From NCBI GenBank assembly GCA_035283685.1, contig DATETJ010000009.1:332925-396924 (forward strand): a stretch of DNA of 64,000 bases, read 5' to 3'. This DNA comes from Candidatus Bathyarchaeia archaeon. Its GTDB lineage: Archaea; Thermoproteota; Bathyarchaeia; Bathyarchaeales; Bathyarchaeaceae. Shown one piece after another: positions 7,196 through 56,532 of this stretch (its first letter is position 1; every line of letters starts with the position of its first letter). A program made the translations under genes and the position numbers. The notes under the pieces are model-generated. The model worked only from the letters and a program-made list of their open reading frames with translations. It was not told where the DNA came from and ran no database searches.

Positions 7196-7241
7196 AACCA
7201 CCCTTCCCAAGAGTCTGGAAATGACAGGCAGTACTTGTCGC

Positions 7242-8129
7242 CTATTGCTTCGCAATACCAAGTTTTCTAACGGTAGCTAGGCCCATCTTGGAGATGAGAT
7301 CCCAAACTTTGTCCTTGGTAGTTCTCCGAAAGAAGGGGGTGTAGTGCGCTAAGCTATCGCCAACGACTTTGGGAGTGATTGTTCCCAGTCCTTCCTTGTG
7401 GGCTAAGGCTATGTGAGCTGCTCTTTGTGGGTTTATGCCCAGGATTTTGGCGGCCAGCGAGTCAACTGCAACCGGGTCGATGCTGGCCATGATGAGCCCC
7501 AGCTTCTTCGTTTGCTTTCCTCGAACCCACGTGCCATCTACGAGGCAGAGGTCTGGCTTTAGAGCCTTGTTCGCTGCCACTATTGCTGCATCGATGGGAG
7601 AGGAGTTAATCGCCCTGTTTTGAGCTTGAATTATGTCAAGACTGTTCTTAAGTGCGCATGAGACTACGAATTCTGAGGACAACTTCATTTTTGGGACGGT
7701 AACAAAGAAGTCGGCAGTGTCAAGAACGCTTGGAACGAGAAGCTCATAGGGGGTTCCTGCGACGTTTACTTCGATTTCATGGCAGTCGGTTTTGCTTAGG
7801 TTGACAAGCCGTGCGTTCTTCTTTGTGGCTACCCTAGAGTATCCGAGGAACTTGAAGAGAACTTCACAGGGTGCAGCTTGTGTGTCTGAACCAACGATTA
7901 ACACGTCAAGGCTCTGTGATGTTGATGATCTCAACAGGTCTATGACGTCGCCAACAACGTGCGGATTAGTTGTTAGACCCGTAGTGTGGTCCCAGTAGTA
8001 ACACAAGTCAGGCTTGATTACGACACTTTTTATGTTCGAATGCATATCAAATTGTATCAGTCTGAGGGACTCTTGTATGGTTTCCTGGAAGTCTGAATTT
8101 ATAGAGGATACTAGGCTTACTAGGCTCAT
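7242..8129 (-). CDS. DUF362 domain protein (paralog A)
   Basis: 295-aa ORF with IKSVVIKPDLCYYWD, a PKMK motif and DPVAVDSLAAKILG. Its start overlaps the stop of the upstream oxidoreductase by 4 nt (ATGA). Confidence 0.8.
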   Translation of the reverse strand: MSLVSLVSSINSDFQETIQESLRLIQFDMHSNIKSVVIKPDLCYYWDHTTGLTTNPHVVGDVIDLLRSSTSQSLDVLIVGSDTQAAPCEVLFKFLGYSRVATKKNARLVNLSKTDCHEIEVNVAGTPYELLVPSVLDTADFFVTVPKMKLSSEFVVSCALKNSLDIIQAQNRAINSSPIDAAIVAANKALKPDLCLVDGTWVRGKQTKKLGLIMASIDPVAVDSLAAKILGINPQRAAHIALAHKEGLGTITPKVVGDSLAHYTPFFRRTTKDKVWDLISKMGLATVRKLGIAKQ

Positions 8130-9148
8130 TTTGTCTTCACTCGTGATTTAGTGAAGTGAATCGAGTTCTCATACGCCTTTGAAATCACTTCCAAGTCTCG
8201 AAAGGCGTCGGCAGCCGAGGGTTCGGGGGATATATCGTTTAAGATGCAGTTGACGAAATACTCAAGCTCATTATGGAACGCCTGTTCCTCTTCTGTTGGT
8301 TTGAGTCCCAGAAGATTAAGCGCATGAGTTATTTTCCTTTGTCTATCCACATTCATTGAAACGGTTTCTGATGTGCCGAACACTTCCATGGATATTGACT
8401 TTCTTTGCGCGAACCAGCCGACGTTTACGCTTGCTGATACTCCGCTTTTGAATCTAATCAGACATAAGGCGTGGTCTTCCATAGGCATGTTGAATCGGTA
8501 ACCAAGATAACTTTGGACGGCAGCTAGCTCGTCTTCGAAATACCAGAGAAGAAGATTAATCATATGTGAGCCCAAGTCGAGGAGCGCTCCGCCTCCTGTA
8601 AGTTCTGGGTCAAGCCACCACTGGGGAATTGGTGGAGGAGACGAGACATTCATTGCAGGAAAGAATGGCCCGTGCCATACATTTGTAGCATGAGCTACTA
8701 CGACCTCTCCCAAGTGTCCACTGTCGATCTCCGACTTGATAGTTGCAAACTTCGAGAATCGCAACGGATATCCCACCATGATCTTGACACCGGCTTTGGA
8801 GGTTTTGGCAACTATTTCTCCCCCTTCAGCTAGATTTCTGGCTAGAGGCTTCTCGAGAAGAATGTTTTTTCCATGCTCAGCCGCATCAACCGCGCATTCC
8901 TGGTGAAGAAATGTGGGTAGCGCGATAACCACAGAATCTATTTCCGAGTCTGCCATGAGTCTTGAGTAGTCTTCGTAAACCTTCTTTACACCCATAGCTT
9001 TGGCAACGCCACGAGCACGCTCCTGAGTATCAGCTACTGCAACTAGACGCGCGTTTTTCAGACGCATAGCGTTTCTTAAATGAAATCTTCCTACTCCTCC
9101 GAGACCTACTAGGCCGAGGTTAACCGTCGTCAAGCCTGAATTCACCAC
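8126..9148 (-). CDS. Gfo/Idh/MocA family NAD(P)-dependent oxidoreductase (paralog A)
   Basis: 340-aa ORF with a Rossmann motif LGLVGLGGVGRFH, an EKPLA motif and a C-terminal alpha/beta domain typical of the family. Confidence 0.85.
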   Translation of the reverse strand: MVNSGLTTVNLGLVGLGGVGRFHLRNAMRLKNARLVAVADTQERARGVAKAMGVKKVYEDYSRLMADSEIDSVVIALPTFLHQECAVDAAEHGKNILLEKPLARNLAEGGEIVAKTSKAGVKIMVGYPLRFSKFATIKSEIDSGHLGEVVVAHATNVWHGPFFPAMNVSSPPPIPQWWLDPELTGGGALLDLGSHMINLLLWYFEDELAAVQSYLGYRFNMPMEDHALCLIRFKSGVSASVNVGWFAQRKSISMEVFGTSETVSMNVDRQRKITHALNLLGLKPTEEEQAFHNELEYFVNCILNDISPEPSAADAFRDLEVISKAYENSIHFTKSRVKTK

Positions 9149-9179: not shown

Positions 9180-10673
9180 CTACACGTATCCTAGTGCCTT
9201 AAGCCGATCTATTATCTGCTTTTTCTGTTCCTTTGGGAACTCTCGCGCCCCTGCGTATGACAGATCAACTGTGTTAGCAAGTTTTTTCTTCAGTTCTTTT
9301 GTTACTTGAGGGTGTTCTTTAGAAATGTCCAGCAACTCATCTGGATCGTCCCGAATGTTGTACAATTCTTCCCTATCCCTCCAGAGTATGTACTTGAAGG
9401 TGGACGTCCGAATTGCCTTGCACCCTCGATCGATTTTAGTGAGTTTGTTTCGTGTGGATTCAGGGAGACTCCAAGCGTTTAGACCTCCGAATGCTTCGGT
9501 GTGAAGTGCGCCATATTCGGCGCACACGAAATCGTGGGTTCCGTCCTTGTCGGACTGAAATAGGCTTTTACCGTCTATGACCTGTGTGTCTTTGACTTGG
9601 GCTGCCTGTGTCATTGTTGGGTATAGGTCCACGAGTGATACCAGACCTTGGATTTTCTGATTGGTAGGAGCTATGTCGGGGTATTTCATTATCAATGGGA
9701 CACGAAGAAGGCTGTCGTAAAGGCACAGTGGGTGGACCGCTAAACCATGGTCGCCAAAGTTTTCTCCATGATCTGACGTTAATAATAGCAGTGTGTCATC
9801 CAAAATACCGTTTTCTTTGAGGCTCTGAACTAGATTTCCAATATGGGAGTCCAGATAGGCTATTTCGCCGTCATACCACGCTCTGATTATCTCCCATTCT
9901 TCACGAGACACAGAGGCTTCCTTTACAGAAAAAGAGAAGCCTCCACCACCGCTTGCAATCCACTGAAGTTTTCGCATGTCAGTGGTCCTTTTGGAAATTT
10001 TTTCAGTGGTAAGTCCCAGCAGGGAGTTGGCGAGCAACTCTTGCAGGTAAAGCGAAGACTCATCGAACTCGTTACAGAACCGCCCTTTGAATGGACTTGG
10101 CGGATCGTACGGTGTGTGCGCTGTGAAATAATTGACAAACACGAAAAAGGGTCTATCTCTGTGGCTTTGCTTAGTAAAGGCTTTTATCATCTCAGTTGCT
10201 TGGGAGGTTCCTTTGTCTGGTCCGCGAACCATACGCCAAATGAAATCCTTGAGTTCTGAAATTCGTCTTCGCTTGATAAGGCGAACAAGCGATGATTCTA
10301 CAACCTCAGCGTAATGTGTGAATCCTTTCTCAAAGCCGCTTCCCAACCCGAGTATTTGACAGCATGTCACTCCGAGCGTATCGTACTTAATCGCCAATGA
10401 TTCTGCGATCGTGGTGTTTTCGCTTTTCAGACGAATTTCCTTTCCTAGAGTTTTGTGACGCGAAGGGTATTTGCCTGTAAAGATTGACGCGTGCGATGGA
10501 GGCGTCCAGGGAGCTGCGGAGAAGGCATTCTCGTACAAGACCCCTTGTGCAGCAATTCTGTCAATATTTGGACTGGTTTTTCTGTCGTAACCATAGCAGG
10601 AAAGGTGATCAGCTCGCACAGTATCCATCACTATTAGAATGATGTTAGGAAGTTTGTTTTCAGTCATAGCCAA
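9180..10673 (-). CDS. Sulfatase-like (alkaline phosphatase superfamily) hydrolase/transferase with non-canonical nucleophile motif
   Basis: 497-aa ORF. IILIVMDTVRADHL and TSDHGENFGDHG are the sulfatase metal-site motifs. The position of C-x-P-x-R reads T-P-P-S-H (SAAPWTPPSHASIFTG). No signal peptide. Confidence 0.85.
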   Translation of the reverse strand: MAMTENKLPNIILIVMDTVRADHLSCYGYDRKTSPNIDRIAAQGVLYENAFSAAPWTPPSHASIFTGKYPSRHKTLGKEIRLKSENTTIAESLAIKYDTLGVTCCQILGLGSGFEKGFTHYAEVVESSLVRLIKRRRISELKDFIWRMVRGPDKGTSQATEMIKAFTKQSHRDRPFFVFVNYFTAHTPYDPPSPFKGRFCNEFDESSLYLQELLANSLLGLTTEKISKRTTDMRKLQWIASGGGGFSFSVKEASVSREEWEIIRAWYDGEIAYLDSHIGNLVQSLKENGILDDTLLLLTSDHGENFGDHGLAVHPLCLYDSLLRVPLIMKYPDIAPTNQKIQGLVSLVDLYPTMTQAAQVKDTQVIDGKSLFQSDKDGTHDFVCAEYGALHTEAFGGLNAWSLPESTRNKLTKIDRGCKAIRTSTFKYILWRDREELYNIRDDPDELLDISKEHPQVTKELKKKLANTVDLSYAGAREFPKEQKKQIIDRLKALGYV

Positions 10674-10717
10674 CCACTCGCCAAACTTGGCTTCACTCGA
10701 TGTGATGATTCAATCGG

Positions 10718-11509
10718 CTATATGCGCTTTCTGCAAATGGCAAAGAGGTGCAAACACAGGCTTGGCACTAGGCGCCCTAGCTCTCTCTCCAATCTGTCAA
10801 GTTTCAAAGCTGAGACTAGGCTTGCTACCAACGGAATGAAGACGTAGTCGCCCTTCACTTTCATCACGATGTAGTTGCATTTTTGCAGAATAGTTGTGAA
10901 GAGCATCATGTGCATATGTGGGAAATACTTGTGAGGGTATTTTGGGGTAAGTCCTAGTGACTCATAGATTCTGGACTTGAGCCTCTTAACATTTGGCACT
11001 TCAACGAGAAGCTTTCCGTCGTCTTTCAGCGATTTGTGAAACTCGCCCAGTCCTCTTGTCATGTCCTGAACACTCACAAATTTTCTTGCAAAGATCGTGT
11101 CAAAGGATTCTGGTCGAAACGGAAGACAGGTATTATCAGCAACCACAAATGAAATGCCCTTTTCGCGTTTGAACCTGTTGACCAAGTCTATGCCCACAAG
11201 ATTATTGTAGCCACTGGACGCAAGCGTTCCTGCAATGACTCCCGAGCCGCATCCAGCGTCTAGGATAAGAGAGGATGGTTTGGAAAAAGAAGAAATCAGC
11301 CTCACATATTCTTTGAATGTAAGAAGTCTCCCACGCGAAGGCTCGAGTATCCTTTGCCGTCTCCATAGGTTTTGATAATAGATCTTCTTGTCCAGCATTT
11401 GATCCTCGCTTTCACCGTAGAGGATTGAACCGGAGGTTCCCTTAGTAGTATGGATGTCCTTTGCTTGCATAACCAACTTCCCAAGAATTAGCTGACGCCC
11501 GGGGCTCAA
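10718..11509 (-). CDS. Class I SAM-dependent methyltransferase
   Basis: 263-aa ORF with motif I ILDAGCGSGVIAG and downstream FDTIFARKF. The true start may lie at an internal Met. Confidence 0.8.
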   Translation of the reverse strand: MSPGRQLILGKLVMQAKDIHTTKGTSGSILYGESEDQMLDKKIYYQNLWRRQRILEPSRGRLLTFKEYVRLISSFSKPSSLILDAGCGSGVIAGTLASSGYNNLVGIDLVNRFKREKGISFVVADNTCLPFRPESFDTIFARKFVSVQDMTRGLGEFHKSLKDDGKLLVEVPNVKRLKSRIYESLGLTPKYPHKYFPHMHMMLFTTILQKCNYIVMKVKGDYVFIPLVASLVSALKLDRLERELGRLVPSLCLHLFAICRKRI

Positions 11510-11559
11510 TCTCGCGTGTGGAAAAAAGTGCTCATGTTGATTGAAGCCGCGACGCTAAC

Positions 11560-14500
11560 CTACCGGTACACCCCTCTGATGTCGTCTATCTTGAAATAGC
11601 CCGCACTCGCTCTGAGTTCCCAGTCAAAACGGATGAAGCTGATAGAGTTGAAATTTACAGTGCCAGTCCTTGAAGTTGGCGCGGAAAGATCAATCGAAGC
11701 AAGTGTCCATGAGTTTGAGGTTAATCCTGTAATCGTGTAAATGTTGTAGTTGCTCCAGCTGGTTGCAACCATAAGTCTGAGCGGCTTTGATGCATCGGAA
11801 ACTTTTATCCACATTTGAAGCGACGAGTATGCGGAAAAGTTCATTGCTCTTTGCATTGTGGCATAGCTGTGCCATGGCGGCGGACTGGACGCAGTCACAA
11901 CTATGGCGCCTGCGCCCTCTTGAAAATCTGCGTTGTCAACACTCAAGGTTGCAGCTGTTGCCCACCATCCTGAGAGAGAATCGCCACTGTCAATCTGAGC
12001 TGTGGTTATTCGTGTGAAGAATGCGGCTACCGTGTGGTCTGATGTGCCAACATTAAATGAATATGAAGGTTGCGTGCTAACACTTGCTCCGTCCAGTTCC
12101 CAATGGTCAAAAGTGTAACCTGAGAGTTGTGTGGCGCCTATTGAGAAAACAGTATTCTGAACCACAGTGTATACTCCCGCTGCGGGGCTTGTTGTTCCGC
12201 TGTTAATTGGAGAGACATCTGAGATTGTAACCGTGGCAGTCGGTATTGAAGTGAAAAAGGCGCTGATGGCGTGGTCTGTCGTCGCAACATTGAACGAATA
12301 TGGGTTAGCAGAGCCGACATTGCTCCCATCTAGTTCCCAGTGGTCAAAGGCATAGAATGTTGAGGGCGTTGAAGAAACGGTAAACAGTGAGTTTTCAGGC
12401 ACTTGATGTTGTCCAACAGCTGGACTTGCGGTTCCACCGCTGGGAGGTGAAACACCCACCGTTACTGTAACCGTGGGCACAGGAGCGAAGAATGCTCCAA
12501 TGCTGTGTGAAGATGTGCTTACGTTGAATGAGTAGGGGTTGATTGAACCTGCGTTCACTCCGTCCAGTTCCCAGTGGTCAAAAACGAAACCTGTGTTTGG
12601 CGTGGCTGTTATTGAGTACAACGAATTCTCCGCCACAGTATATGTTCCAATTGTGGGGGTCGTGGTTCCGCTGCTCGACGGTGAAACCGCAGACACATCC
12701 ACGGTAACTGTCGGTACTGGCGGCCCATAAACTACTTCGAGTTTTTGTCCGCCTTGGCCTTTGTTGAATTCAATGTAGATGTATTTGTCATCTGTATGTT
12801 TAAGTTGCCCGATGGAGCGATTGTCAACGAAGTTGCTAAAGCTTCTTCCGTTGACTTGAGTTGGAAACTTCCAGACGTAGTCTTCCAAGTCGCTGGGCGC
12901 ATCAAATTCAAGGGTTATTTTCCCTGCACTGTAATAGGCGTTTGATGTGGTTTGAAGCATATTTCTGGAACTTTGCCAGAACACGAAGGCTTCACGAGGG
13001 TTTGCTGGCTTGATCGAGTCTGTATACTCCGGGAATGAAAATGAAGTGTTATAGTTCAAGCGATGCGTAAAGGTGCTTACTACCGGGTATACAGTCTTAA
13101 CCATGTCTTCAAGCGGCGCAAATCTATCATACGGATAGATAAATTCCTCATTCGCGCTTGACAGAGTGTATTTGGAAGTTTCGGATTTCTTGCCAAATCC
13201 CACATAGTACATTTTCCCATCATATTGGAACAGAACCCATGGCAGACTGTCTATCACTGCGTCCGCCTCGGGGGGATGATTGTCATATGGATGCGAAATG
13301 ATAACTTGATCTTCTTCGAAGCCGTAACCAGTTCCGCCGAACTTGTCCTTCATCCAGTATCTATTGGCTTCATACCTTTCACGAATGTACGTGGTGTTCA
13401 ACACAAAACTAGCTCCATTCCACATTGCATACGAGCTGCCGTCTGCCAGTCTGACATGCTGCCATCCGTGAAAGCTATAACTCAAACCGTAGTCAGCTGC
13501 ATACTGTCTCCACCTTGGCAGGTTTGTTCCCTCGTTTTCGATAAGCATCGGCGTCTGCCACCAGCCTATGTTGATTCTTTGAGGTTGCGAGAAGTCAGGT
13601 GAGATTGCGCACCAATAGAGCTTTCCTTGAACAGTTTGGTAGGTCATGTTTTCCCACATTTTGTAGCTGACATCGTCGCCGAAATTATTGTTTTGATTGA
13701 AATCAAGTTTGATACGATCATAGTTCCCTCCCAGCGTGCTATTGTAAATTATCGCACGGTAGGTTCTGGAATTTCGTAGGTTTGTCTGCAGGACGCCGGT
13801 TACATCGGTGTACATGACTCTTGAACTTGGCATTCCAGTGTATCCAGAGGGAGCTCCGCTTGTCAAAGTCAAGTCAGCTACGCTTGAAGTTCGTCCATAA
13901 CCCAAAACGCTGTATTGATAGTCAAAGACCCATCCCGATTGAAGAACTGACTCCGGAGGCAACTGATCACTTCTCCATCGATAAGTGTCAGTATCTATTC
14001 GGATGATCCATGCGCCTTTCCAACGTTTGAAAGGCATTATCTTCACCGGAATCTCTTCGATGTTGTTAAAAGCAAAGTTGAAGGCATGCCCCCAAAAGTC
14101 CATTCTGTATTCAGTCCAAGTTGCCGGGTACCTTGCAGGAGCGTACTCCATAGCAAACTCGTTCAATCCATAGCCGAGGTACCAGACTTTTCCACTGCCA
14201 TATGTCATGTTAGCCATTCCAACAGACCAGCCGCCACTCCACGTTTTGTTAAACCATAAGGTCATTCCGGTGTGCTTTCGAATTACGGCGTGCGTGTAGA
14301 GCGACAAACCAAACGTTAAGCTTGTGCCCTCTCGATATTCCTTGACCCCATCAAAAAAGGTTCTTATAACGCGAGCTGAAACGGTGAGCCCTCTCCATTC
14401 AAAACCAACATCCGAGGAAGCAAGATTAAGTAATGCCGGAACTGCGTTTGCAGCGCGATTGAAGATAATCGCGTTCGTACCGTTACCAACCGCCCAGTAT

Positions 14501-14898
14501 ATGTGCTGTTGATTTGCAGCTGTCGAATCGGTTGGCTCATAGTCCAAGAGCAGGACAATTGCTTGATACTTTGGTAAACCGTTGGCGAACTGAAGGGAGT
14601 AACGGCCTGGAGGATTGGTATCCGATGGTCCCGAAATCATGTCGTCTTGAAACAGATCGTAGGGGACGCCTCTGCCTTGCATGATTCTTTCAATTCTTTG
14701 AATGGAGTTGTAGGTGAGATCCCGGTAATAGTTGTACCCGCCCATTATGATTACGGCCCACTTGAGAGGGATTTGGCTATTTGGATCTGACTCCGCAGCC
14801 TTTGTTGTCGCGGGAAGGAGAGCTGCAGCAATACTTATGCAGATTAGAATGAGAGCCGCATGGGCGTTAGGTTTCTTGATGTTCATTAGAAACACCAT
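11560..14898 (-). CDS. Large secreted protein: unknown 730-aa N-terminal region + 3 InlB-B-like repeats + C-terminal CBM-like jelly-roll domain
   Basis: 1112-aa ORF with a signal peptide (NIKKPNAHAALILICISIAAALLPATTKAAE). Three 80-aa repeats each end in FDHWELDG...YSFNV...H.I.AFF. The C-terminal domain ends in FIRFDWEL...FKIDDIRGVYR. Confidence 0.85.
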   Translation of the reverse strand: MVFLMNIKKPNAHAALILICISIAAALLPATTKAAESDPNSQIPLKWAVIIMGGYNYYRDLTYNSIQRIERIMQGRGVPYDLFQDDMISGPSDTNPPGRYSLQFANGLPKYQAIVLLLDYEPTDSTAANQQHIYWAVGNGTNAIIFNRAANAVPALLNLASSDVGFEWRGLTVSARVIRTFFDGVKEYREGTSLTFGLSLYTHAVIRKHTGMTLWFNKTWSGGWSVGMANMTYGSGKVWYLGYGLNEFAMEYAPARYPATWTEYRMDFWGHAFNFAFNNIEEIPVKIMPFKRWKGAWIIRIDTDTYRWRSDQLPPESVLQSGWVFDYQYSVLGYGRTSSVADLTLTSGAPSGYTGMPSSRVMYTDVTGVLQTNLRNSRTYRAIIYNSTLGGNYDRIKLDFNQNNNFGDDVSYKMWENMTYQTVQGKLYWCAISPDFSQPQRINIGWWQTPMLIENEGTNLPRWRQYAADYGLSYSFHGWQHVRLADGSSYAMWNGASFVLNTTYIRERYEANRYWMKDKFGGTGYGFEEDQVIISHPYDNHPPEADAVIDSLPWVLFQYDGKMYYVGFGKKSETSKYTLSSANEEFIYPYDRFAPLEDMVKTVYPVVSTFTHRLNYNTSFSFPEYTDSIKPANPREAFVFWQSSRNMLQTTSNAYYSAGKITLEFDAPSDLEDYVWKFPTQVNGRSFSNFVDNRSIGQLKHTDDKYIYIEFNKGQGGQKLEVVYGPPVPTVTVDVSAVSPSSSGTTTPTIGTYTVAENSLYSITATPNTGFVFDHWELDGVNAGSINPYSFNVSTSSHSIGAFFAPVPTVTVTVGVSPPSGGTASPAVGQHQVPENSLFTVSSTPSTFYAFDHWELDGSNVGSANPYSFNVATTDHAISAFFTSIPTATVTISDVSPINSGTTSPAAGVYTVVQNTVFSIGATQLSGYTFDHWELDGASVSTQPSYSFNVGTSDHTVAAFFTRITTAQIDSGDSLSGWWATAATLSVDNADFQEGAGAIVVTASSPPPWHSYATMQRAMNFSAYSSLQMWIKVSDASKPLRLMVATSWSNYNIYTITGLTSNSWTLASIDLSAPTSRTGTVNFNSISFIRFDWELRASAGYFKIDDIRGVYR
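12013..12722 (-). repeat. Three tandem 240-nt coding repeats (InlB B-repeat-like)
   Basis: The repeats are visible at DNA level: agttcccagtggtcaaa recurs near 12327 and 12567, and a variant occurs near 12085. At protein level the motif FDHWELDG occurs three times. Confidence 0.85.
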
Positions 14899-47572: not shown

Positions 47573-48109
47573 TTAGGGCTCTAAGACGATCAGATAACCA
47601 ACCATTCTGCTGTGGTCAACGTCACAGTTTCCTAGCGTGTGGTCGTGGTCTATGCCGCATTTGAATTGGAAGACTCCAACTTCGTCGACAACAAAGGTCT
47701 TGACGACAGTTCGCTGTGCGTCGTTCGGTTGCTCGTTTCTTCCGGGAATTCTGCCCGTGTCAACAGCAAAGTCAGTTGACACGAAAGAATGCGCGTTGCT
47801 ACGTGGGTTCTTCACCGTTAACTGAATTGTGTCGCCTTTGTAAACAGTGATGGTATCTGGTTCCCATCGATGGAATTCTCCGGCTATGAAATCATCACCC
47901 GTTGTTTCGTTTTCCATCACTATCTTTCCTTCTCCCATGCTTATGGTTAGAGCCCGTGTCTGAGGCGTGTATGCTAGTTTCGCGTCGAAGTCACTCTGCA
48001 TCTTTGCCAGTTGAGATGGCACGGTTGCCAATAAATACCCGCTTAGGGCGACAGCTACGACCCCGATTGCTATGGCTATAGCGGTCAATCCTTTTCCTGT
48101 AGTACTCAC
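47573..48109 (-). CDS. Membrane-anchored cupredoxin-domain protein with expanded Cys/His copper loop
   Basis: 178-aa ORF with an N-terminal TM helix. ITVYKGDTIQLTVKNPRSNAHSF is followed by FKCGIDHDHTLGNCDVDHSRM (C-x10-C-x3-H-x2-M). A strong GGAGGTGA Shine-Dalgarno lies upstream. Confidence 0.8.
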   Translation of the reverse strand: MSTTGKGLTAIAIAIGVVAVALSGYLLATVPSQLAKMQSDFDAKLAYTPQTRALTISMGEGKIVMENETTGDDFIAGEFHRWEPDTITVYKGDTIQLTVKNPRSNAHSFVSTDFAVDTGRIPGRNEQPNDAQRTVVKTFVVDEVGVFQFKCGIDHDHTLGNCDVDHSRMVGYLIVLEP

Positions 48110-48302
48110 TTGTTTTCACCTCCGTCTCTCTCCATCTTCTATCGAGTAGAACATTTTTTTGGGTATCTCCTAATAAACTTTCGGTAAGAAATTGGGAAAG
48201 AATATGAATAAAATAGGAAACACGGAATCCATTAAACCGCGAACCATGAGCATCACGTAATGGTCCATTCCAGTTTCTTTCGCATGTGCAGCGCCTTTCC
48301 TC

Positions 48303-50279
48303 TCAACCTACCCAAAGCCATAGAAGAAGCACCGTGTAACCCACATGCATTACCCCAACAGGAATTGACGCTCTCACAGCTTGCGTTTTCTCGGTGAAGG
48401 TTCTCATTGAGATTTTTATTGTAGTTCTCAGTGCAAAGATGAGGCCTACGATGAGAATCAAAACCTGAAGATACGGCACTAAACCTGATAGAAATGGCTG
48501 CCATGCAAAGTGTTTGGTTCCGAAAAGATCCCAGCCCCAGCCGAATGGATCGGAAATGACGGCAATTATGTAGGAACCGTTGATGAAGAGTATCGCTATG
48601 CTAAAGGCTATCCAAGCCAACAGACCCATAGGAACAAGCGTGTATGAGTAGTTGATGAACAATTTTTTCAAAGGCATTTCCTTGACCCGTGAAGCAAGCT
48701 TCGAGAGGGCGATGAAGACAAAGTACACTGCTGGAAAAGCCACAAGCGTTGAGCCCCAAACCAGGACCGCGAACGAACCCCACTGCGGCAGGCTTGCCAT
48801 GTTTGCCATGTCTTTTAGCCACGAGTAAGGTCCCATGAATGTTAGCCCATATAGAAAGGCTAAGGTTGCCATGATGAAGGCTTTCCACGCCTCGTCGAAA
48901 CCTCTTTTCTTTATGCCATGCCATGGTTCAACGTATAGATCTTCGCCGCCCATCCTTAGGTATAAGGTCGTGTTGTCTTTTGGGCAGGTTTTCAAGCATT
49001 CAGTGCACAAACCGCAGTAGGCGTTTCGGTTCATGTTTTGTGGGAATTCAAGCCAGGGACAACCGTAGCCTTTGTCACTTCCTTTGATGCATTCTTTTCC
49101 CGGGTGCTCAAGGCAGACTTTGCGGTCTCGGACTCTCAGTTCCAGAGTGGAGAACATGCTGTAGAGTCCAATGAATCCAGCGACTGGACAGATGTATCGA
49201 CAAAACACGCGGTCTTTGAACACAAGAGACAGTATGAGTGGAGTCGCAATCAACAGAACCATCAAGTACCCTGTAGCCCAAGGTCGTGTGATGAGTATTC
49301 CAATGAACATTGATGTGGCGAGGAAGTCGAGGTTTTGTATCCAGATGTTGTCGAGTTTCTTGGGCCATTTGAGATTCAGCCCGAATCGCTTCTCCTTTTT
49401 GCCAGTGATAGTTCCTCTTTGAGTCCATTCGCCAAAGGAAGGCAGGGGGCAAATCATGCACCAGAATCTCGCGAGGACAGGAACTAGAAACAACATTAGG
49501 GCAGCCCACCAGAGAATCCAAACAAACATTATCGAGAGGTTCTTGTTTCCGACTTGAGTACCGAAAACTCCCGTCAATATCACTAGTATGAAAAATAGAA
49601 GGTTTGGGTATTGCACCCAGAACTGCCAAGAACGAAGTTTCAGCAAGCGGTTGACTATTCCTATTTTTAGCAGGTCAAACCTAAATAAGTACGGGTTTGA
49701 AGGGTCTGGATTGCCATAGACCTTTGAGCGTGGAACCATGATCGCGAATAAGCCGAATGCCGCTGCAACAGCTAGAATTGATGAAAACAAGAACTGATTC
49801 GCGGGTTCTACTCTCAGTTTTCCTATCATGAACGGGTGGAAATAGCCGCAAGTTAGTGTGCAACGAAATCTGAAGACTCCTGCTTTATCGGCTACAAACA
49901 TCAACTCTCTAGTCTCATTGCTCTCGGCTCCATCGTTTTGGATGATCTCCGTTTTGATTTCGTATCCGTCGATGTAGAATCCATGCGACACATCTAACGA
50001 AGAGAAACGAATAAGGACTGTGTCGCCTTGATTAACGACGATTTCGGACGGATCGTAGCCAAACATGAACGCTTTGATGTCTATTTCTCTGCGAGTTGGA
50101 GTCTGAGCTCTGCTAAGAGAGGAAGTCAACCCAATGAGGGCTAGAGCAATCAATGTTACAGCTGTGATTTGAAAAGCTGTTGCTTTTGAAATGACTCGAT
50201 TCCTCAGCGAATGTGTTGTTCTCGTATTTCTCCGCCCTTTTAAGGCACGAACCTCTAGAACCTCAAGCTGAGTTGACAA
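48303..50279 (-). CDS. Fusion protein: extracytoplasmic CuA-motif cupredoxin domain + NapH/NosR-like polytopic 4Fe-4S membrane domain
   Basis: 658-aa ORF with a TM anchor. The cupredoxin has DVSHGF and CTLTCGYFHPFM (C-x3-C-x3-H-x2-M; nt 49827-49862). More than 8 TM helices follow, with CMICP and CRYICP motifs and the ferredoxin motif CGLCTECLKTCP. Confidence 0.85.
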   Translation of the reverse strand: MSTQLEVLEVRALKGRRNTRTTHSLRNRVISKATAFQITAVTLIALALIGLTSSLSRAQTPTRREIDIKAFMFGYDPSEIVVNQGDTVLIRFSSLDVSHGFYIDGYEIKTEIIQNDGAESNETRELMFVADKAGVFRFRCTLTCGYFHPFMIGKLRVEPANQFLFSSILAVAAAFGLFAIMVPRSKVYGNPDPSNPYLFRFDLLKIGIVNRLLKLRSWQFWVQYPNLLFFILVILTGVFGTQVGNKNLSIMFVWILWWAALMLFLVPVLARFWCMICPLPSFGEWTQRGTITGKKEKRFGLNLKWPKKLDNIWIQNLDFLATSMFIGILITRPWATGYLMVLLIATPLILSLVFKDRVFCRYICPVAGFIGLYSMFSTLELRVRDRKVCLEHPGKECIKGSDKGYGCPWLEFPQNMNRNAYCGLCTECLKTCPKDNTTLYLRMGGEDLYVEPWHGIKKRGFDEAWKAFIMATLAFLYGLTFMGPYSWLKDMANMASLPQWGSFAVLVWGSTLVAFPAVYFVFIALSKLASRVKEMPLKKLFINYSYTLVPMGLLAWIAFSIAILFINGSYIIAVISDPFGWGWDLFGTKHFAWQPFLSGLVPYLQVLILIVGLIFALRTTIKISMRTFTEKTQAVRASIPVGVMHVGYTVLLLWLWVG

Positions 50280-51213
50280 CGAGAGTTCCTTTCATGTTTG
50301 AATGTTGGGGACTACAGTACACCATGCAATCGTAAGTGAAGGTCCCAGCCACAATAGCCGTGAACTCGAGTGTGATGGTTTCTCCTTTTTCTATGTAGTC
50401 GGTGTCCACATCGAAATCGTGCAAAGCTAAGCTGTGGGCCACGTCCATTGATTTCACGATCAGCCTGACAATGTCGCCTTGGTTGACGATTATAGTTTTA
50501 CCATCTTCACTTTCTGCAACCTTAAAGCCGCCCTTTTCTTGAGTCCAAGCCTCGATGTTAAACACTTTTACGGCAGCTGCAGTGAGAACAACTGTAACAG
50601 TTGTTGCTGCCTCGCCGCGCACCATAGCGGTGGTTGAGTTCGTTCCATATCCGGATGCCACGGCTTTAACCGAGTAGTCTCCAGCTGTAAGGTCACTGAA
50701 TACGTACTGACCGTCTGTGTTGGTGATTCCTTCTGCTTTCTTTGGTCCTGTGATTGTGACCGATGCCCCTTCTAGGAAGATTCCATCAACACTTGTCACG
50801 TAGACTCGTAGGCTTCCTGGAGGTGATTTATCCTCAACTTTGAATTTGCCTGAGTGGGCGATGGTGCTGTGTCCGACACCGCAGGGTATGAAGCATCTGT
50901 AGAAGAACTCTCCTGCTTTGTCGGCGACGAAACTGAACCTTTGTGGTTCACCTGGTTTTATTTCCGCTCTTATCCCATAGTCCATCATCTGAAAGCCGTG
51001 GATAACGTCTTCGCTCGTGACAAAAAGCGTAATCATGTCATCTTTCTTTACAATTATCTCGTTAGGTATGAATTCCCATTGTCTAGTTGCAATGCGGATC
51101 TCGCGTTGTTCGCCGAAAACATTTTGATCTAGGTAGAATATGCCTAATGGCACGGGCACCAGAGCGATGAATACTAATCCGAAAGCTAGGAGTTCGGTTT
51201 TGTTTATTACCAT
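50263..51213 (-). CDS. Secreted/anchored double-cupredoxin protein with central carboxypeptidase-regulatory-like domain
   Basis: 316-aa ORF. Domain 1 has DVIHGF...CFIPCGVGHSTI (no Met). The middle segment reads LRVYVTSVDG...TDGQYVFSDLTAGDYSVKA. Domain 2 has DVAHSL...CMVYCSPQHSNM (full CuA-type pattern). Confidence 0.8.
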   Translation of the reverse strand: MVINKTELLAFGLVFIALVPVPLGIFYLDQNVFGEQREIRIATRQWEFIPNEIIVKKDDMITLFVTSEDVIHGFQMMDYGIRAEIKPGEPQRFSFVADKAGEFFYRCFIPCGVGHSTIAHSGKFKVEDKSPPGSLRVYVTSVDGIFLEGASVTITGPKKAEGITNTDGQYVFSDLTAGDYSVKAVASGYGTNSTTAMVRGEAATTVTVVLTAAAVKVFNIEAWTQEKGGFKVAESEDGKTIIVNQGDIVRLIVKSMDVAHSLALHDFDVDTDYIEKGETITLEFTAIVAGTFTYDCMVYCSPQHSNMKGTLVVNSA

Positions 51214-51447
51214 TTTTCTCCCAGATTCTTCCCATATTTAACCTTAGAGCTCATCATAATTAAGGGTTTCTGCTCAGTTTTTCGAACAAAAAGAGAAACA
51301 ACGTTCACATTTTAGTCGAGTTTGTTTGCCCTTGCACAGGATTTAGGAATTTTCCTTCCATGGAAGTGATGTAAACTTACTTTGCGAAGCCCTTTGGCGC
51401 AGAGTGATTTTATAAATACGTGAGCTTATTTAGAATGCACTGTCTGA

Positions 51448-51795
51448 ATGAGGTTAATGAATGTGTCGAGAGCCTTCAGAGCGACACTCTGGTGGATTGT
51501 GGCTGGAACTGAAGGAGGGAAAACACGAGCCAAGATTGTGCTAAGACTAAAAGAGAGACCCATGAATGCAAACCAATTAGCTGATTACTTGAAGATGGAT
51601 TACAAAACGATACGTTATCACCTTAAGCTTTTGAAAGATAACAAACTCGTGGAGTCTACTGGAGGCGATTACGGATCGATGTATTTTCTCACATCCAAAC
51701 TTGAGTCGAACTTTCACGTCCTGCAAGAAATATGGGAAAAAATCACAAAAGAAAACGACAATACGACAACAGATGTTAAAGGAGGTGGTGTTTAA
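51448..51795 (+). CDS. ArsR-like winged-helix transcriptional regulator
   Basis: 115-aa ORF with MNANQLADYLKMDYKTIRYHLKLLKDNKLVES. It is divergent from the cupredoxin operon. TTTTATAAATA lies about 30-40 nt upstream. Confidence 0.8.
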   Translation: MRLMNVSRAFRATLWWIVAGTEGGKTRAKIVLRLKERPMNANQLADYLKMDYKTIRYHLKLLKDNKLVESTGGDYGSMYFLTSKLESNFHVLQEIWEKITKENDNTTTDVKGGGV

Positions 51796-51819
51796 CTGTC
51801 TTTAGAAGAAACGGCACAT

Positions 51820-52047
51820 TTGTCTTTGCACGCCACTTCCATCTTGATAACATTAGTAGTAATTTTCGTCTTCATCAGGACTTACAGAGAGATAAAGTCA
51901 AGATTCAACCTTGGACTTGTCATTTTCTCTCTTGCCATGCTCATCCAGATAATTGCTTCAGCGTCCCTTGATATAGTCATCCACCTTGTGTCAGAGATTT
52001 TTGAACTCGCGGCTCTGATTATTTTCCTAAGCCTTATCCGAAAATAG
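51820..52047 (+). CDS. Small membrane protein (2-3 TM helices)
   Basis: 75-aa ORF with a TTG start 25 nt after the regulator. It is strongly hydrophobic. Confidence 0.5.
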   Translation: MSLHATSILITLVVIFVFIRTYREIKSRFNLGLVIFSLAMLIQIIASASLDIVIHLVSEIFELAALIIFLSLIRK

Positions 52048-53017: not shown

Positions 53018-54223
53018 ATGCATTTGACTAGAGAAGAGGAACGAATCCTCAAAGGTGAGTCTGGAGAAGGAACACGAAAAGCCATGGAGCTACTTGTGGC
53101 AATTGGAGATGCTTACGATGCTCCAAGACTGATCGAAGTAAGTCGAGCGCACGCCGCATCAAGCGGTCAAGAAGGTGATCTTTACTTTGTTGAACTCTTG
53201 GCTAAAGGAGGCGCCACATGTAAGGTTCCCACTAGCACAAACCCAGTCTATGACATGGAATGTTTCGATAAAATGTTCAGAATTCCGAAGGAAGATTCTG
53301 ATGTGGCTCGCAGAGTGATGAAGGGCTACAAGCAGATCGGCGCCATTTTGAGTTGGTGCTGCACACCGTACATAACAGAGAACATTCCAATGTATGGTGA
53401 AAATGTCTCGTTTTCCGAATCCAGCGCTACGCCATTCGTAAACACGGTGATTGGCGCAAGAACGAATCGGGAGGCGGCTCAAAGCGCGTTAGCGGCGGGA
53501 GTAGTTGGCAAAACTCCTGAGTACGGATTGTACTTCGAGGAGAATCGAAGGGGTACAGCAGTAGTCAAAGTGAACGCCACTCTTCGTGACGAGTTTGATT
53601 ACTCGCTTCTGGGTCAGTATGTTGGCAAGCAGATCGGCTATGGAATCCCTGTATTCACGGGTATATCGCGCCGTCCTTCAACTGAGGAAATGATAAACCT
53701 ATGCGCCATGCTGAACACGTCAGGCGCCATACCCATGTTTCACATACCCGGAATAACAGTTGAGGCTCCAACCCTCAAGGAAGCCTTTGGAGGCAATACC
53801 CCAAAACAGGAAATCACTGTGACTGGGCGTGAACTCAAGGAAACTCAAGAGGATCTTCAGACGGCAAGCGGCAAGGTCGACATCGTCCAGCTTGGGTGCC
53901 CGCATTACACGCTTAAGCAGGTAGTGGATGTTGCACGTTTGCTTCAGGGAAAGAGGATCCATCGCGGCGTATCGTTTTGGATTTGCACATCGGCAACCGC
54001 TTTGTTTCTAGCTGAAAGAATGGGGTATGTTGATGCAATAGAGAAAGCCGCGGGATACGTCGTAGCAGACACATGCATAGATATGGTTTGCTGGAACGGG
54101 TTCAAAGACAAGGTTGGCATGACCGACTCGCCCAAATGCGCCTACTACAGAAGATTCAAAGATGTAATAGTTGCAAGGCTGCCAGATTGCGTCAAAGCTG
54201 CAGTTGAAGGTGAATGGCATTGA
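53018..54223 (+). CDS. Aconitase X catalytic subunit (DUF521); probable phosphomevalonate dehydratase large subunit
   Basis: 401-aa ORF beginning MHLTREEERILKGESGEGTRKAMELLVAIGDAYDAPRLIEVSRAHA, a typical AcnX N-terminus. Conserved Cys residues include CTPY and LGCPH. Confidence 0.85.
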   Translation: MHLTREEERILKGESGEGTRKAMELLVAIGDAYDAPRLIEVSRAHAASSGQEGDLYFVELLAKGGATCKVPTSTNPVYDMECFDKMFRIPKEDSDVARRVMKGYKQIGAILSWCCTPYITENIPMYGENVSFSESSATPFVNTVIGARTNREAAQSALAAGVVGKTPEYGLYFEENRRGTAVVKVNATLRDEFDYSLLGQYVGKQIGYGIPVFTGISRRPSTEEMINLCAMLNTSGAIPMFHIPGITVEAPTLKEAFGGNTPKQEITVTGRELKETQEDLQTASGKVDIVQLGCPHYTLKQVVDVARLLQGKRIHRGVSFWICTSATALFLAERMGYVDAIEKAAGYVVADTCIDMVCWNGFKDKVGMTDSPKCAYYRRFKDVIVARLPDCVKAAVEGEWH

Positions 54224-54642
54224 AGAAACCAGAAATCGTTCTTAAATGCCATAAGATAATGGGTGGCTACGGAGAGGGCGAAGCGTTAGTATCCAAGGAG
54301 CCTGTGTGCTTCTATCTCACTGATCCAAAGACTGGCAAGGTGCGAGAAAGAGGACATGAGCTTGAAGGAAAGAACATTGCCAGGAAGGTGCTTGTTTTCT
54401 CTTCGGGGAAAGCCAGCTCAGTAGTTCAGATTGATGGTCTCTTCAAGCTGGCGTCAAACAATGTCGCGCCCAAGGCAATGATTGTGAGAGACATCGAGAC
54501 AGTGCTGATTGTTAGCGCGTTTATCGCGAACGTGCCCCTAGTAGACAGACTCGAGAAAGATCCGTTTGGGGTCATTGACACGGGCGATTTTGTTAAGGTG
54601 GATGCGAATAAAGGAATCGTAACCGTGATAAAGAAGGCTTAG
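54214..54642 (+). CDS. Aconitase X swivel-domain subunit (DUF126); probable phosphomevalonate dehydratase small subunit
   Basis: 142-aa ORF overlapping the large-subunit gene by 10 nt. It carries GEALVSKEPVCFY...VLVFSSGKASSV. Confidence 0.85.
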   Translation: MALKKPEIVLKCHKIMGGYGEGEALVSKEPVCFYLTDPKTGKVRERGHELEGKNIARKVLVFSSGKASSVVQIDGLFKLASNNVAPKAMIVRDIETVLIVSAFIANVPLVDRLEKDPFGVIDTGDFVKVDANKGIVTVIKKA

Positions 54643-54668: not shown

Positions 54669-55601
54669 GTGTTGCATATTGCCCTGATAGGTATCGGCCG
54701 AGTTGGTCAGGCGACGGCCTTTGCTTTGGCACACGAGCAATACATAAACGAGTTAACATTGGTTGATGTTGCTCCAAGACTCGCTTGGGCCGTTGCAGAA
54801 GAAATGCGCCATGCAAGCGCAGGTATGCATGCATCATTAGATGTCAACGCGTTTGAAAAAGTTGAAGATATCTCTAACGCGGATATCATAATTGTCACTG
54901 CAGGCAAACCCGCGGCGCCGAGAGCGGGTAGAAGAGGCCTAGTGGAGGCAAACGCGAAAACTATCAAAAATCTAGCTGAAACTGTGGCGGCTCGAAACCC
55001 AAGTGCGAGATACCTTATTGTGACAAATCCCGTGGACGCAATGGCTACTTTATTCAAGGAAGCAAGTGAAGCAAACTACGTCATTGGCAGTGGGTGCCAC
55101 CTTGATAGTCTTAGATTGAGAGCTGAAGTGGCTAAACAGGTCAAGGTGCCCATACGCTACGTTGAAGGATATGTAGGGGGAGAGCACGGTCATAACGATG
55201 TCTACTTGTGGTCAACCGTCAAAATAAACGGGGAACCTTTTGACGAACACTTGAAAAGAAGAAAACTGAAAATCAGGAAGAATCGTATCATTGCTCTTGT
55301 CCATGACAACACTGAAGACATATTGGCGGTGCTCGGCGGCACCACGTTCGGTCCTGCCACAGCCTTTCGAGAGATAGTGCGAGCAATGGCTTTGAACACT
55401 CACAGTTTGATTTCGGTAGCAGCGCCTTACAAAACTGTGGATATACCTGAGCCAGTGTATATTAGCGTTCCTTCGAAACTTGGAATGAGCATCGGACCTA
55501 CAATTGAGCAAGCACTTACTCTTGCAGAAAGAAAAGGGTTAAAGGGCGCTGCTAAAGCAGTTCACGACTTGTATCGAGTTGCCCGTGAAGTCGCAGCGTG
55601 A
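54669..55601 (+). CDS. L-lactate/malate dehydrogenase family oxidoreductase
   Basis: 310-aa ORF with IALIGIGRVGQATAFALA, IVTAGKP, VTNPVD and GGEHG (catalytic His). The substrate loop (KPAAPRAGRRG) is atypical. Confidence 0.85.
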   Translation: MLHIALIGIGRVGQATAFALAHEQYINELTLVDVAPRLAWAVAEEMRHASAGMHASLDVNAFEKVEDISNADIIIVTAGKPAAPRAGRRGLVEANAKTIKNLAETVAARNPSARYLIVTNPVDAMATLFKEASEANYVIGSGCHLDSLRLRAEVAKQVKVPIRYVEGYVGGEHGHNDVYLWSTVKINGEPFDEHLKRRKLKIRKNRIIALVHDNTEDILAVLGGTTFGPATAFREIVRAMALNTHSLISVAAPYKTVDIPEPVYISVPSKLGMSIGPTIEQALTLAERKGLKGAAKAVHDLYRVAREVAA

Positions 55602-55614
55602 AGAGTGGTTGAAC

Positions 55615-56532
55615 TTAGTCTTTCGACTTAGCTAGCCCAGCGTTGAATAGACTGTGCAGAGAGATCTTTCCCTTTCCGAGAGTTCCGCCGTAGTTTGTTG
55701 CAGTAATCTTTGACACTCCGTTCACGCTTACTGCATTCTCAATTCCGATCTTCATTGCGCGCTCCACGTCTTCCAGCCTAAGCCCGCTGACAATGACTTC
55801 ATAGACACATTTCACGCCTATGGGAATCTTGTTTCCTCGATGCCCAACAAGTGAGGGGCAGTAGGCATCATTAGTTGTAGCTATGGCGTCCTTGTACCTT
55901 TTGCCTCCCACTTTAGTTCCGGAAGCAGCGAACTTTCCAACCACGTATGGGACAGTCTTTATGCCTTCAAGTGCCAGTTCAGCGGCTTCGAGTGCTGATT
56001 CATCTGATTTCGCCAGAATTAGGAACATGCCGCCGGCTACGCCTTTCGCAATTCCGAACGTTCTTTCAACGTAGAACTCGCCGTCCATTCTAGGTATCTT
56101 GTAGACACGTCTCCCAAAGGCTTCAGTTTCCTTTTCGTATCCGTCTCCGAAAGTCTGTATCATTGTACCCTTAATGTCCACAAAATCGTCCGCCATTTTT
56201 CTTGGTAAGGCGTCAAACACGTTGGTCTTAGGGTATGGCATCACTCCTTTTCTTATTCGGATTATAAGCCATTCTCGCAATGATTCCATTTTTCGGTCAA
56301 GAAGCTGTATGATGAAACCCGGTCTTGAGTCAGGCGTCAACTGAGGCTTAGCTTCTGCCTCTAGAGAGGCTTCGCACGGGGGAATCGCAGCTGACCTGCC
56401 GAGTCCTTTAGTCTCCATTGCTGATTCTAAAGCCCATTTTCTGTTCACTGAAGTTATCAGTATCCTTGCAATGCGTACGTTGAAAGTTTCACAGAAAGTG
56501 TCTTCGATTGGAACACCGTGAACCTTGAACAC
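55615..56532 (-). CDS. ftr: Formylmethanofuran--tetrahydromethanopterin N-formyltransferase
   Basis: 305-aa ORF with GVPIEDTFCETFNVRIARILIT, GVAGGMFLILA, TNDAYCPSL, VKCVYEVIVSGL and ISLHSLF, which match remembered Ftr sequences along the full length. Confidence 0.9.
   Translation of the reverse strand: MFKVHGVPIEDTFCETFNVRIARILITSVNRKWALESAMETKGLGRSAAIPPCEASLEAEAKPQLTPDSRPGFIIQLLDRKMESLREWLIIRIRKGVMPYPKTNVFDALPRKMADDFVDIKGTMIQTFGDGYEKETEAFGRRVYKIPRMDGEFYVERTFGIAKGVAGGMFLILAKSDESALEAAELALEGIKTVPYVVGKFAASGTKVGGKRYKDAIATTNDAYCPSLVGHRGNKIPIGVKCVYEVIVSGLRLEDVERAMKIGIENAVSVNGVSKITATNYGGTLGKGKISLHSLFNAGLAKSKD

Follow-up and report, generated by a model that had tools for sequence, protein, structure and literature searches.

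A CuA-type cupredoxin fused to a NosR/NapH-like iron-sulfur membrane module in a three-gene operon of a Bathyarchaeia archaeon

A candidate electron module

A stretch of 64,000 nucleotides from Candidatus Bathyarchaeia archaeon (contig DATETJ010000009.1, positions 332,925 to 396,924 of the forward strand; hereafter the window) carries an operon of three consecutive genes for cupredoxin proteins, one of which joins a CuA-type cupredoxin to an iron-sulfur (Fe-S) membrane protein. On balance, we lean towards reading the operon as an electron module that belongs to the NosR/NapH superfamily, spans the membrane, is modular in build and feeds extracytoplasmic copper proteins. Because its relatives lie beside nitrous-oxide, organohalide and molybdenum reductases, the operon most likely carries electrons outward to copper centres. 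An electron conduit to outside copper centres had been proposed in an earlier note made from the letters alone. The proposal gains from the presence of relatives in nos, rdh and molybdoenzyme clusters, and from a flavoprotein insertion found in the family; no acceptor enzyme was found in the window.

The module would be free of haem. The 658-amino-acid (aa) fusion protein would take electrons at its cytoplasmic Fe-S loop; some two [4Fe-4S] clusters may be bound there, and two Cys-Pro motifs lie at the interface with the membrane. Electrons would then cross the membrane and reach the outward-facing cupredoxin of the same protein, presumed to be loaded with copper as a binuclear CuA centre and to work in the outward direction. 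From there they would pass to two membrane-anchored, presumably co-transcribed cupredoxin proteins, and from these to a putative high-potential extracytoplasmic acceptor. The donor may be a cytoplasmic flavoprotein, a ferredoxin-like partner, or quinol, as proposed for NapH.

All three genes are on the minus strand. They encode proteins of 316 aa (50263-51213), 658 aa (48303-50279) and 178 aa (47573-48109), and the open reading frame (ORF) calls agree with JGI gene calls on identical metagenome contigs. The stop of the 316-aa gene overlaps the start of the 658-aa gene by 17 nt, and a gap of 193 nt separates the latter from the 178-aa gene. The three proteins contain four cupredoxin domains, in agreement with the earlier description of three consecutive minus-strand cupredoxin genes. 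All motifs quoted there were found at their residues by a script, as was the full CuA pattern in the 658-aa protein and in domain 2 of the 316-aa protein. Judged by sequence, two of the four predicted copper sites are canonical CuA sites, and the other two are conserved variants.

The 62 ORFs of the window that reach 70 aa or more were searched for partners with eleven seed proteins (E<=1). There was no match to COX1, the NosZ propeller, NosD, NosL, RdhA, NarG, SCO, EB_dh, GltD, cytochrome b or Rieske proteins, and the CxxCH motif is absent from all of them. The absence of oxidase, NosZ and cytochrome genes, first reported for at least 10 kb, thus holds for the whole window.

The CuA-type head and the membrane core

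The extracytoplasmic CuA-type cupredoxin of the 658-aa protein spans residues 60-160 (49800-50102, minus strand). Its predicted ligands H99, C140, C144, H148 and M151 fall in the motifs DVSHGF (96-101) and CTLTCGYFHPFM (140-151). Among solved structures, the profile of the 658-aa family matched CuA domains only: the domain of Thermus ba3 subunit II at 1e-19 to 1e-22, and that of NosZ at about 1e-15. In an AlphaFold (AF2) model of the protein (pLDDT 81.6, pTM 0.84) the head has the cupredoxin fold, and Foldseek superposes it on the ba3 and NosZ CuA domains with a root-mean-square deviation of 1.5-2.7 A over about 100 residues, at 25-31% identity; the structure prediction recommended earlier thus came out in favour of a CuA-type fold. 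The ligands are kept in fused homologues, save for one, P0009, which lost them. By sequence and by model, the head is homologous to CuA domains.

The head shares with ba3 subunit II and NosZ the same fold and the same H...C-x3-C-x3-H-x2-M pattern, and these proteins provide its best sequence and structure matches. It differs from both in that the CuA-type domain is fused to an Fe-S membrane protein, and neither a subunit I nor a NosZ propeller is encoded in the window. Scores fall far below the cut-offs of the family models, at 33.7 and 77.9 bits for CoxB (TIGR02866, cut-off 147.7), no window ORF being COX1-like, and at 38.8 and 71.4 bits for NosZ (TIGR04246, cut-off 625), to which only the cupredoxin part aligns.

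An anchor helix precedes the head. The remainder of the protein is made of a NosR/NapH-like membrane module of four helices (aa 216-375; 49155-49634), a cytoplasmic Fe-S loop (aa 376-460; 48900-49154) and a C-terminal five-helix bundle (aa 461-658; 48306-48899), all on the minus strand. The membrane module features C274-x2-C277-P and C360-x3-C364-P, within CMICP (274-278) and CRYICP (360-365). The Fe-S loop features C389, C397 and C407, and C422-x2-C425-x2-C428-x3-C432-P, within CGLCTECLKTCP (422-433). The C-terminal domain is marked by an invariant outer-face loop, D577-P-x-G-W-G-W. Conservation in the core was judged on an alignment of 20 diverse homologues. The 13 cysteines of the protein are the two CuA ligands, C140 and C144, and 11 others, all invariant in the alignment: those of the CX2CP, CX3CP and CxxCxxCxxxCP motifs, and three isolated residues. 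The Cys-Pro motifs and ferredoxin-type cysteine motif singled out in the earlier note are therefore present, and their cysteines are invariant. Both Cys-Pro motifs lie at the cytoplasmic ends of helices, the fourth and the sixth; the first reads CX2CP, and not CX3CP, family-wide. Eleven long helices are predicted in the model. Segments rich in lysine and arginine, taken as inside, are the N-terminus, residues 183-221, 267-312, 354-460 (the Fe-S loop), 524-547 and 618-636. This positive-inside topology places the cupredoxin and the D577-P-x-G-W-G-W loop outside, the Fe-S loop inside.

Comparison by hhalign with the canonical NosR of a related locus (L005) gave 93.5% probability and an E value of 2.3e-7, the match being confined to the hairpin with the two Cys-Pro motifs. 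This hairpin is, on sequence grounds, homologous to NosR. No FMN_bind match was found on the 658-aa protein in the Pfam search. The hhalign match, the topology and the missing FMN_bind domain bear out the suggestion that the protein has the NapH/NosR architecture, with a cupredoxin in place of the flavin mononucleotide (FMN) domain of NosR. Fer4_5 is the only Pfam family above threshold in the core (30.4 bits, cut-off 22); FixG_C and Fer4_18 gave no reported match at E<=0.1. Neither PDB profile search nor Foldseek returned a solved structural relative of the core, all matches lying in the cupredoxin. For the C-terminal five-helix domain there is neither a Pfam family nor a relative of solved structure.

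Resemblance to NosR concerns the outward redox head, the two-Cys-Pro hairpin, the cytoplasmic Cys-rich Fe-S motifs and the occurrence of family relatives beside nosZ. The two differ in the head, a CuA cupredoxin here and a covalent-FMN domain in NosR, in the first motif (CX2CP here), and in the placement of the Fe-S loop, which here is set between helices, with an extra five-helix domain after it. NF046105, the NosR model, yields 14.2 bits (cut-off 1000). The module shared by NapH, NosR and RdhC has been described as four membrane segments carrying a pair of CX3CP motifs whose role is unknown (PMC5928378), a description that fits the core except for its CX2CP motif. NapH has, like the 658-aa protein, a four-helix module with two Cys-Pro motifs as well as cytoplasmic [4Fe-4S] motifs; its proposed task is to connect a periplasmic reductase with the membrane or quinol pool (PMC5928378; PMC3475470). 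NapH/MauN proteins feature four helices, two CX3CP motifs and two C-terminal [4Fe-4S] motifs, and NapH measures about 300 aa (PMC3475470). The 658-aa protein, about twice as long, has eleven predicted helices, one canonical CxxCxxCxxxCP motif besides the three isolated invariant cysteines, a fused cupredoxin and no NapG partner, and reaches 21.5 bits with the NapH/MauN model (TIGR02163, cut-off 213). RdhC/PceC proteins combine a two-Cys-Pro membrane module with an exocytoplasmic redox head (PMC5928378), as the 658-aa family does, but their head binds FMN and they lack Fe-S motifs; a copper-type head and an Fe-S loop are found here.

Several observations weigh against an outward electron module. 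Of the four cupredoxin sites, two do not keep the CuA pattern. With COX2 (PF00116), the 658-aa protein taken alone reaches 18.2 bits, below the cut-off of 22, and it stays just under that of Cupredoxin_1; in the COX2 search recommended in the earlier note, the 316-aa protein exceeded the cut-off, the 658-aa protein taken alone did not, and the 178-aa protein gave no match. All 11 core cysteines are at or beyond the cytoplasmic face of the membrane, and no membrane helix holds an invariant histidine in the 20-sequence alignment, so that no cofactor evidently bridges the membrane to CuA. To our knowledge, the crossing of the membrane by electrons is likewise unsolved for NosR and NapH. An acceptor enzyme was found nowhere in the 64-kb window. 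No RNA runs containing the locus were found, and the DNA runs containing it were four, labelled soil metagenome.

Distribution of the family

The family is found in archaea and bacteria and spans more than 15 phyla. Over 600 of the scored candidates match at E<=1e-3, and 592 or more species-level genomes contain a relative. The core matched 279 of 1.84 billion representatives at 50% identity with E<=1e-30, and 1195 with E<=1e-10. Archaeal hosts include Thorarchaeota, Caldarchaeales, Nitrososphaeria, Ca. Hecatella, the Hydrothermarchaeota-like Pyrohabitans and Undinarchaeales. Bacterial hosts include many Anaerolineae and other Chloroflexota, Desulfobacterales, Fidelibacterota, Planctomycetota, Spirochaetes, Bacillota and others; one of them, Desulfoluna limicola ASN36 (L032), has been cultured, and its genome is complete. 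The closest named relative resides in Thorarchaeota (57% identity, L085), and the closest operon relatives in Thorarchaeota and Ca. Hecatella. In the databases, members go by no other names than '4Fe-4S binding protein' or 'cupredoxin domain-containing protein', and a full-text literature search found no description of the fusion or its family. The family is a widespread variant within the NosR/NapH-type superfamily, for which no published characterisation was found. Far from being an isolated oddity, the arrangement recurs in hundreds of species, often linked to reductases.

To survey the company of the core, ORFs were called in 84 related loci and annotated by iterated profile searches from inspected seeds, which were confirmed by Pfam. 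The core could be called in 75 loci. A cupredoxin is fused to it in 45, and 29 of the 30 unfused cores have a gene for a small CuA cupredoxin within two genes, so that core and CuA-type cupredoxin are fused or adjacent in 74 of the 75 loci; since loci were picked by similarity to the fused query, this figure is biased towards cupredoxin-bearing members, and it too counts among the points against the electron module. A second cupredoxin usually follows; it measures about 125-150 aa or, in 19 loci, is joined to a cytochrome c domain in a protein of about 315-350 aa.

Genes found beside the module

Terminal enzymes were counted within 10 kb of the core in the 84 loci. NosZ was found in 7 loci, reductive dehalogenase (RdhA; PF13486 with a Tat signal) in 6, NarG-like molybdoenzymes in 9 and haem-copper oxidase subunit I in 1. 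The NosZ set includes Caldarchaeum, in which nosZ-nosL-x-nosD-nosF-nosY is divergent to a cupredoxin-core-cupredoxin unit. NarG-like enzymes are often accompanied by a NarH-like subunit and by an EB_dh haem-b subunit directly before the module. Clusters of rdhA-rdhB with a family member occur in Anaerolineales and Bacillota metagenome-assembled genomes (MAGs). EB_dh was found in 14 loci, CuA-cytochrome c fusions in 19. NosZ, RdhA, NarG-like, EB_dh and CuA-cytochrome c proteins are high-potential periplasmic systems, and this company fits a CuA donor. CuA centres have positive potentials, which would suit the acceptors of the relatives, namely N2O, organohalides and oxyanions. Factors for the assembly of copper sites are also frequent: SCO1 or TlpA-like thioredoxins lie in 18 loci, NosL in 9.

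At least 8 kb are available on both sides of the core in 31 loci. A terminal enzyme is present in 13 of them and absent from 18, and the present window belongs to the latter group. The lack of a terminal partner asserted in the earlier note is accordingly true of the window and not of the family at large. Nor does the family always sit beside a known terminal oxidase or N2O reductase, a constant association that would have made it an ordinary accessory.

These neighbours raise the question of whether the module is a NosR-like accessory of a nosZ located elsewhere in the genome, donating electrons to NosZ or keeping it active, in which case its orphan look would be an accident of gene order. 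Archaeal cores 50-56% identical to the present one lie directly beside nosZ-nosL-nosD-nosF-nosY (L002, L008, L087), three bacterial loci (L022, L027, L030) combine the module with SCO1 and nosZ, and the cupredoxins score best against the CuA models of NosZ and CoxB. We regard this explanation as unlikely. No nosZ, nosD, nosL or ABC genes reside in the window, nor within 10 kb in the closest relatives, Thorarchaeota L085 (57%) and Hecatella L072. NosZ accompanies only 7 of the 84 loci, others carrying RdhA or NarG-like enzymes. Moreover, a canonical NosR co-occurs with the fused core in L005. In this Ca. Pyrohabitans locus, an FMN-type NosR lies next to nosZ and the fused core has its own small cupredoxin (4434-8493 and about 10001-12321); the two proteins are thus not simple alternatives.

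Some loci have a peculiar organization. In a Bacillota MAG (L051), a whole unit of fused core, tetrahaem cytochrome, small type-1-like cupredoxin and reductive dehalogenase is duplicated in tandem, which suggests that the module serves organohalide respiration there. In Ca. Hecatella, the gene just downstream of the fused core (L072, 12198-12791) encodes a secreted protein of 197 aa in which stretches rich in His and Glu are repeated (HEHVHEEEAVVEEHVHEEE...), and which may bind metal. Proteins of 430-500 aa that end in Phe and bear the haem motif 'FARRYxTSCxxCH' in their N-terminal part recur upstream of the module in 10 bacterial loci, among them D. limicola (L032, 7648-9156), L019, L023, L042 and L086. 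They match no Pfam family and look like outer-membrane barrels. In D. limicola this protein adjoins a plastocyanin-like protein whose C-terminal part, judged by inspection of the sequence, is carboxypeptidase-regulatory-like. In Desulfobacterales, these neighbours of 430-500 aa were considered as L-NosZ (clade III), and rejected because they have no CuA motif, an N-terminal CxxCH and no Pfam match. In a related archaeal contig (L089, 7975-8481), a membrane protein of 168 aa gives a weak Pfam match to COX1; it lies about 7 kb from the core and two-cupredoxin pair and is too short for a haem-copper oxidase subunit I.

Cytoplasmic donors and exchangeable heads

The Fe-S loop has an insertion hot spot, between H392 and E396. 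One homologue, P0004, is 58% identical to the window protein over residues 58-392 and 63% over 396-658, and carries at this point an insertion of about 475 residues. The insertion corresponds to Fer4_20 and Pyr_redox_2, that is, to the NAD(P)H-FAD-FeS module of the glutamate synthase small subunit (GltD-like). The same insertion was found in three further representatives, and separate GltD-like genes are adjacent in 5 loci. In Thorarchaeota (L085) and in L089, FAD-oxidase/CCG or HdrABC/FlpD-like genes flank the module. The flavoprotein insertion and the flanking genes lend support to a cytoplasmic location of the Fe-S loop. Read from the sequences, they also support a cytoplasmic, pyridine-nucleotide-linked donor in at least some members.

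The outward side varies as well. Other heads found on the core are two cupredoxins, an AhpC-TSA/thioredoxin-like domain and a cytochrome c554-like domain. Given these swaps, the core behaves as a general module for exchangeable extracytoplasmic redox heads.

A broader proposal can be put forward tentatively, and we hold it to be possible rather than probable. The family might represent unrecognised, widespread respiratory electron-entry modules. They would accept electrons from donors in the cytoplasm, of NAD(P)H or ferredoxin type, and lead them via Fe-S clusters across the membrane to a CuA 'copper wire'; haem would play no part, and quinone perhaps none either. In many phyla such modules would take the place of NosR, NapGH or cytochrome bc complexes where N2O, organohalides or oxyanions are respired, and in the present archaeon they would be a copper-only extracellular outlet. 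The transmembrane electron path of NosR, NapH and RdhC-type proteins is unresolved in the field, as are the electron donors to NosZ in archaea and to RdhA in Chloroflexota. One core with different heads (CuA, thioredoxin-like, multihaem) provides natural 'experiments' on this path, and the built-in NAD(P)H flavoprotein of some members names a donor that can be assayed. Its place in gene clusters for the reduction of N2O and organohalides makes the family relevant to the turnover of greenhouse gases and pollutants.

The companion cupredoxins

The 316-aa protein (50263-51213) features an N-terminal membrane anchor, a cupredoxin domain D1, a CarboxypepD_reg beta-sandwich (aa 135-211) and a second cupredoxin domain, D2. 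It matches COX2 in two stretches (65.1 bits, cut-off 22), and CarboxypepD_reg is also above cut-off. The predicted D2 site has the full CuA pattern (H260, C296, C300, H304, M307; motifs DVAHSL at 257-262 and CMVYCSPQHSNM at 296-307). The D1 site would be formed by H72, C107, C111 and H115, within DVIHGF (69-74) and CFIPCGVGHSTI (107-118), and has Ile at axial position 118. The architecture is rare, full-length relatives being only five. The His and Cys ligands are invariant among them; the axial residue of D1 is Ile in four and Met in the most distant one, that of D2 is Met in four and Gln in one.

The anchored 178-aa protein (47573-48109) is a variant cupredoxin with the pattern C151-x10-C162-x3-H166-x2-M169. 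Two variant domains had been set apart from the start, and both proved to be such: D1, with Ile118 in place of Met, and this protein. Cupredoxin_1 gave 23.8 bits, below cut-off, and COX2 no match. The family is small, with 17 relatives, and every one with a source name is archaeal; one resides within the core cluster of a Nitrososphaeria MAG (L046). Residues H80 (in HRWEP), H107, C151, C162, D163 and H166 are invariant, and M169 is found in most members; E78, H80, E83 and D163 are additional invariant residues near the site.

The family profile finds its best sequence match in NirK, at about 1e-11, and the best fold match of the protein is nitrosocyanin (E 2.5e-9), followed by NirK domain I. 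These matches, and the invariant E78, H80, E83 and D163, would fit copper proteins that are themselves catalytic: at the cell surface, the 178-aa protein or the Met-less D1 in particular would reduce a small oxidant, be it O2, nitrite, NO or a reactive oxygen species, and the membrane module would serve them as reductase. The absence of a separate terminal enzyme from the window would suit this arrangement, as would a gene for an Fe/Mn superoxide dismutase 2.4 kb from the cluster. It is nonetheless a remote prospect. The type-2 copper His of NirK is not conserved in the 178-aa family, in which K150 precedes C151 and NPRxxAHSF has a single His, and the C-x10-C-x3-H-x2-M ligands, with two Cys, set the protein apart from nitrosocyanin and NirK domain I. 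The function of nitrosocyanin itself is unknown, and most relatives of the core lack the 178-aa family. The companion cupredoxins are more readily seen as carriers in the outward electron module.

The regulator gene and the divergent region

A 115-aa ArsR/SdpR-like winged-helix regulator (51448-51795, plus strand) is encoded divergently from the operon. HTH_5 is passed (38.9 bits, cut-off 22); the ArsR/SmtB model NF033788 scores 33.6 bits against a cut-off of 55, and the SdpR model is also below cut-off. The protein lacks Cys altogether, contains just two His, and shows no metal site that could be recognised, be it of the alpha3N or of the alpha5 type. Of the features of an ArsR/SmtB metalloregulator it thus has the winged helix, but neither the metal-sensing site nor the subfamily score, and a role as metalloregulator is not supported. 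The next gene (51820-52047, plus strand) encodes a 75-aa protein with two membrane helices and a weak DUF8036 match. In Ca. Hecatella orcuttiae (L072, 8311-8909), the fused core is preceded by a closely similar pair, ArsR and an 83-aa two-helix protein, and an ArsR-like gene abuts the core and two-cupredoxin pair of L089. Since homologous regulators adjoin the core in these relatives, as the earlier note had asked to be checked, the linkage is conserved in this archaeal group. The ArsR/SdpR-like regulator always has a small two-helix, DUF8036-like protein (75-83 aa) as its partner, a combination that resembles regulator and membrane-tether pairs such as SdpR/SdpI.

An adjacent ArsR-family regulator would be at home in a system for copper handling, the alternative offered in the earlier note, or for maturation of copper sites. 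The core would then be a CcoG-like cupric reductase, or a source of reductant for the Cys residues of CuA sites, and the cupredoxin-like proteins would be carriers. CcoG/FixG proteins are polytopic, have a Fer4_5 domain and cytoplasmic Fe-S clusters, and are linked to copper enzymes. Fer4_5, common to CcoG/FixG, is the sole family above threshold in the present core; SCO1/TlpA-like thioredoxins and NosL recur in the loci (18 and 9, respectively), and an AhpC-TSA/thioredoxin-like head replaces the cupredoxin in some members. Set against this, the lack of metal-sensing residues in the regulator weakens the alternative. CcoG has no cupredoxin head, and no FixG_C or Fer4_18 match was reported here. 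Ligand pattern and fold correspond to redox CuA centres and not to any known chaperone. SCO, TlpA and NosL neighbours are equally explained as assembly factors for CuA proteins, and the in-line NAD(P)H flavoprotein insertion, together with the linkage to terminal reductases, argues for sustained electron flux. Copper handling is thus weakened as an explanation, in spite of Fer4_5 and of the SCO1/NosL company, and is given a small chance.

The divergent intergenic region (51214-51447) was read directly from the sequence. A TATA-like motif, TTTATAAATA (51409-51418), lies about 30 nt upstream of the start of the ArsR-like gene, and an AT-rich TATA-like stretch (about 51233-51240) some 25-30 nt upstream of the 316-aa gene; both are predicted promoters. 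As candidates for an ArsR operator only weak 9-nt palindromes were found, which are not convincing.

Other genes in the window

A gene for FTR, the formylmethanofuran:tetrahydromethanopterin formyltransferase, lies beside genes for the two subunits of aconitase X and for a dehydrogenase of the Ldh/Mdh (malate/lactate) family (55615-56532, 53018-54642 and 54669-55601). No other methanogenesis genes are in view in the window. The neighbourhood of FTR fits a non-methanogenic archaeon using C1 metabolism linked to tetrahydromethanopterin (H4MPT).

A long run of co-oriented genes occupies positions from about 7200 to 33000 on the minus strand, with further segments at 4151-7195 and 11560-14898. The genes scanned encode a DUF2206 membrane protein, a 1014-aa protein with PKD/CARDB repeats and a 1112-aa protein with InlB-B repeats. 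The run looks like a cell-surface or glycan-synthesis island.

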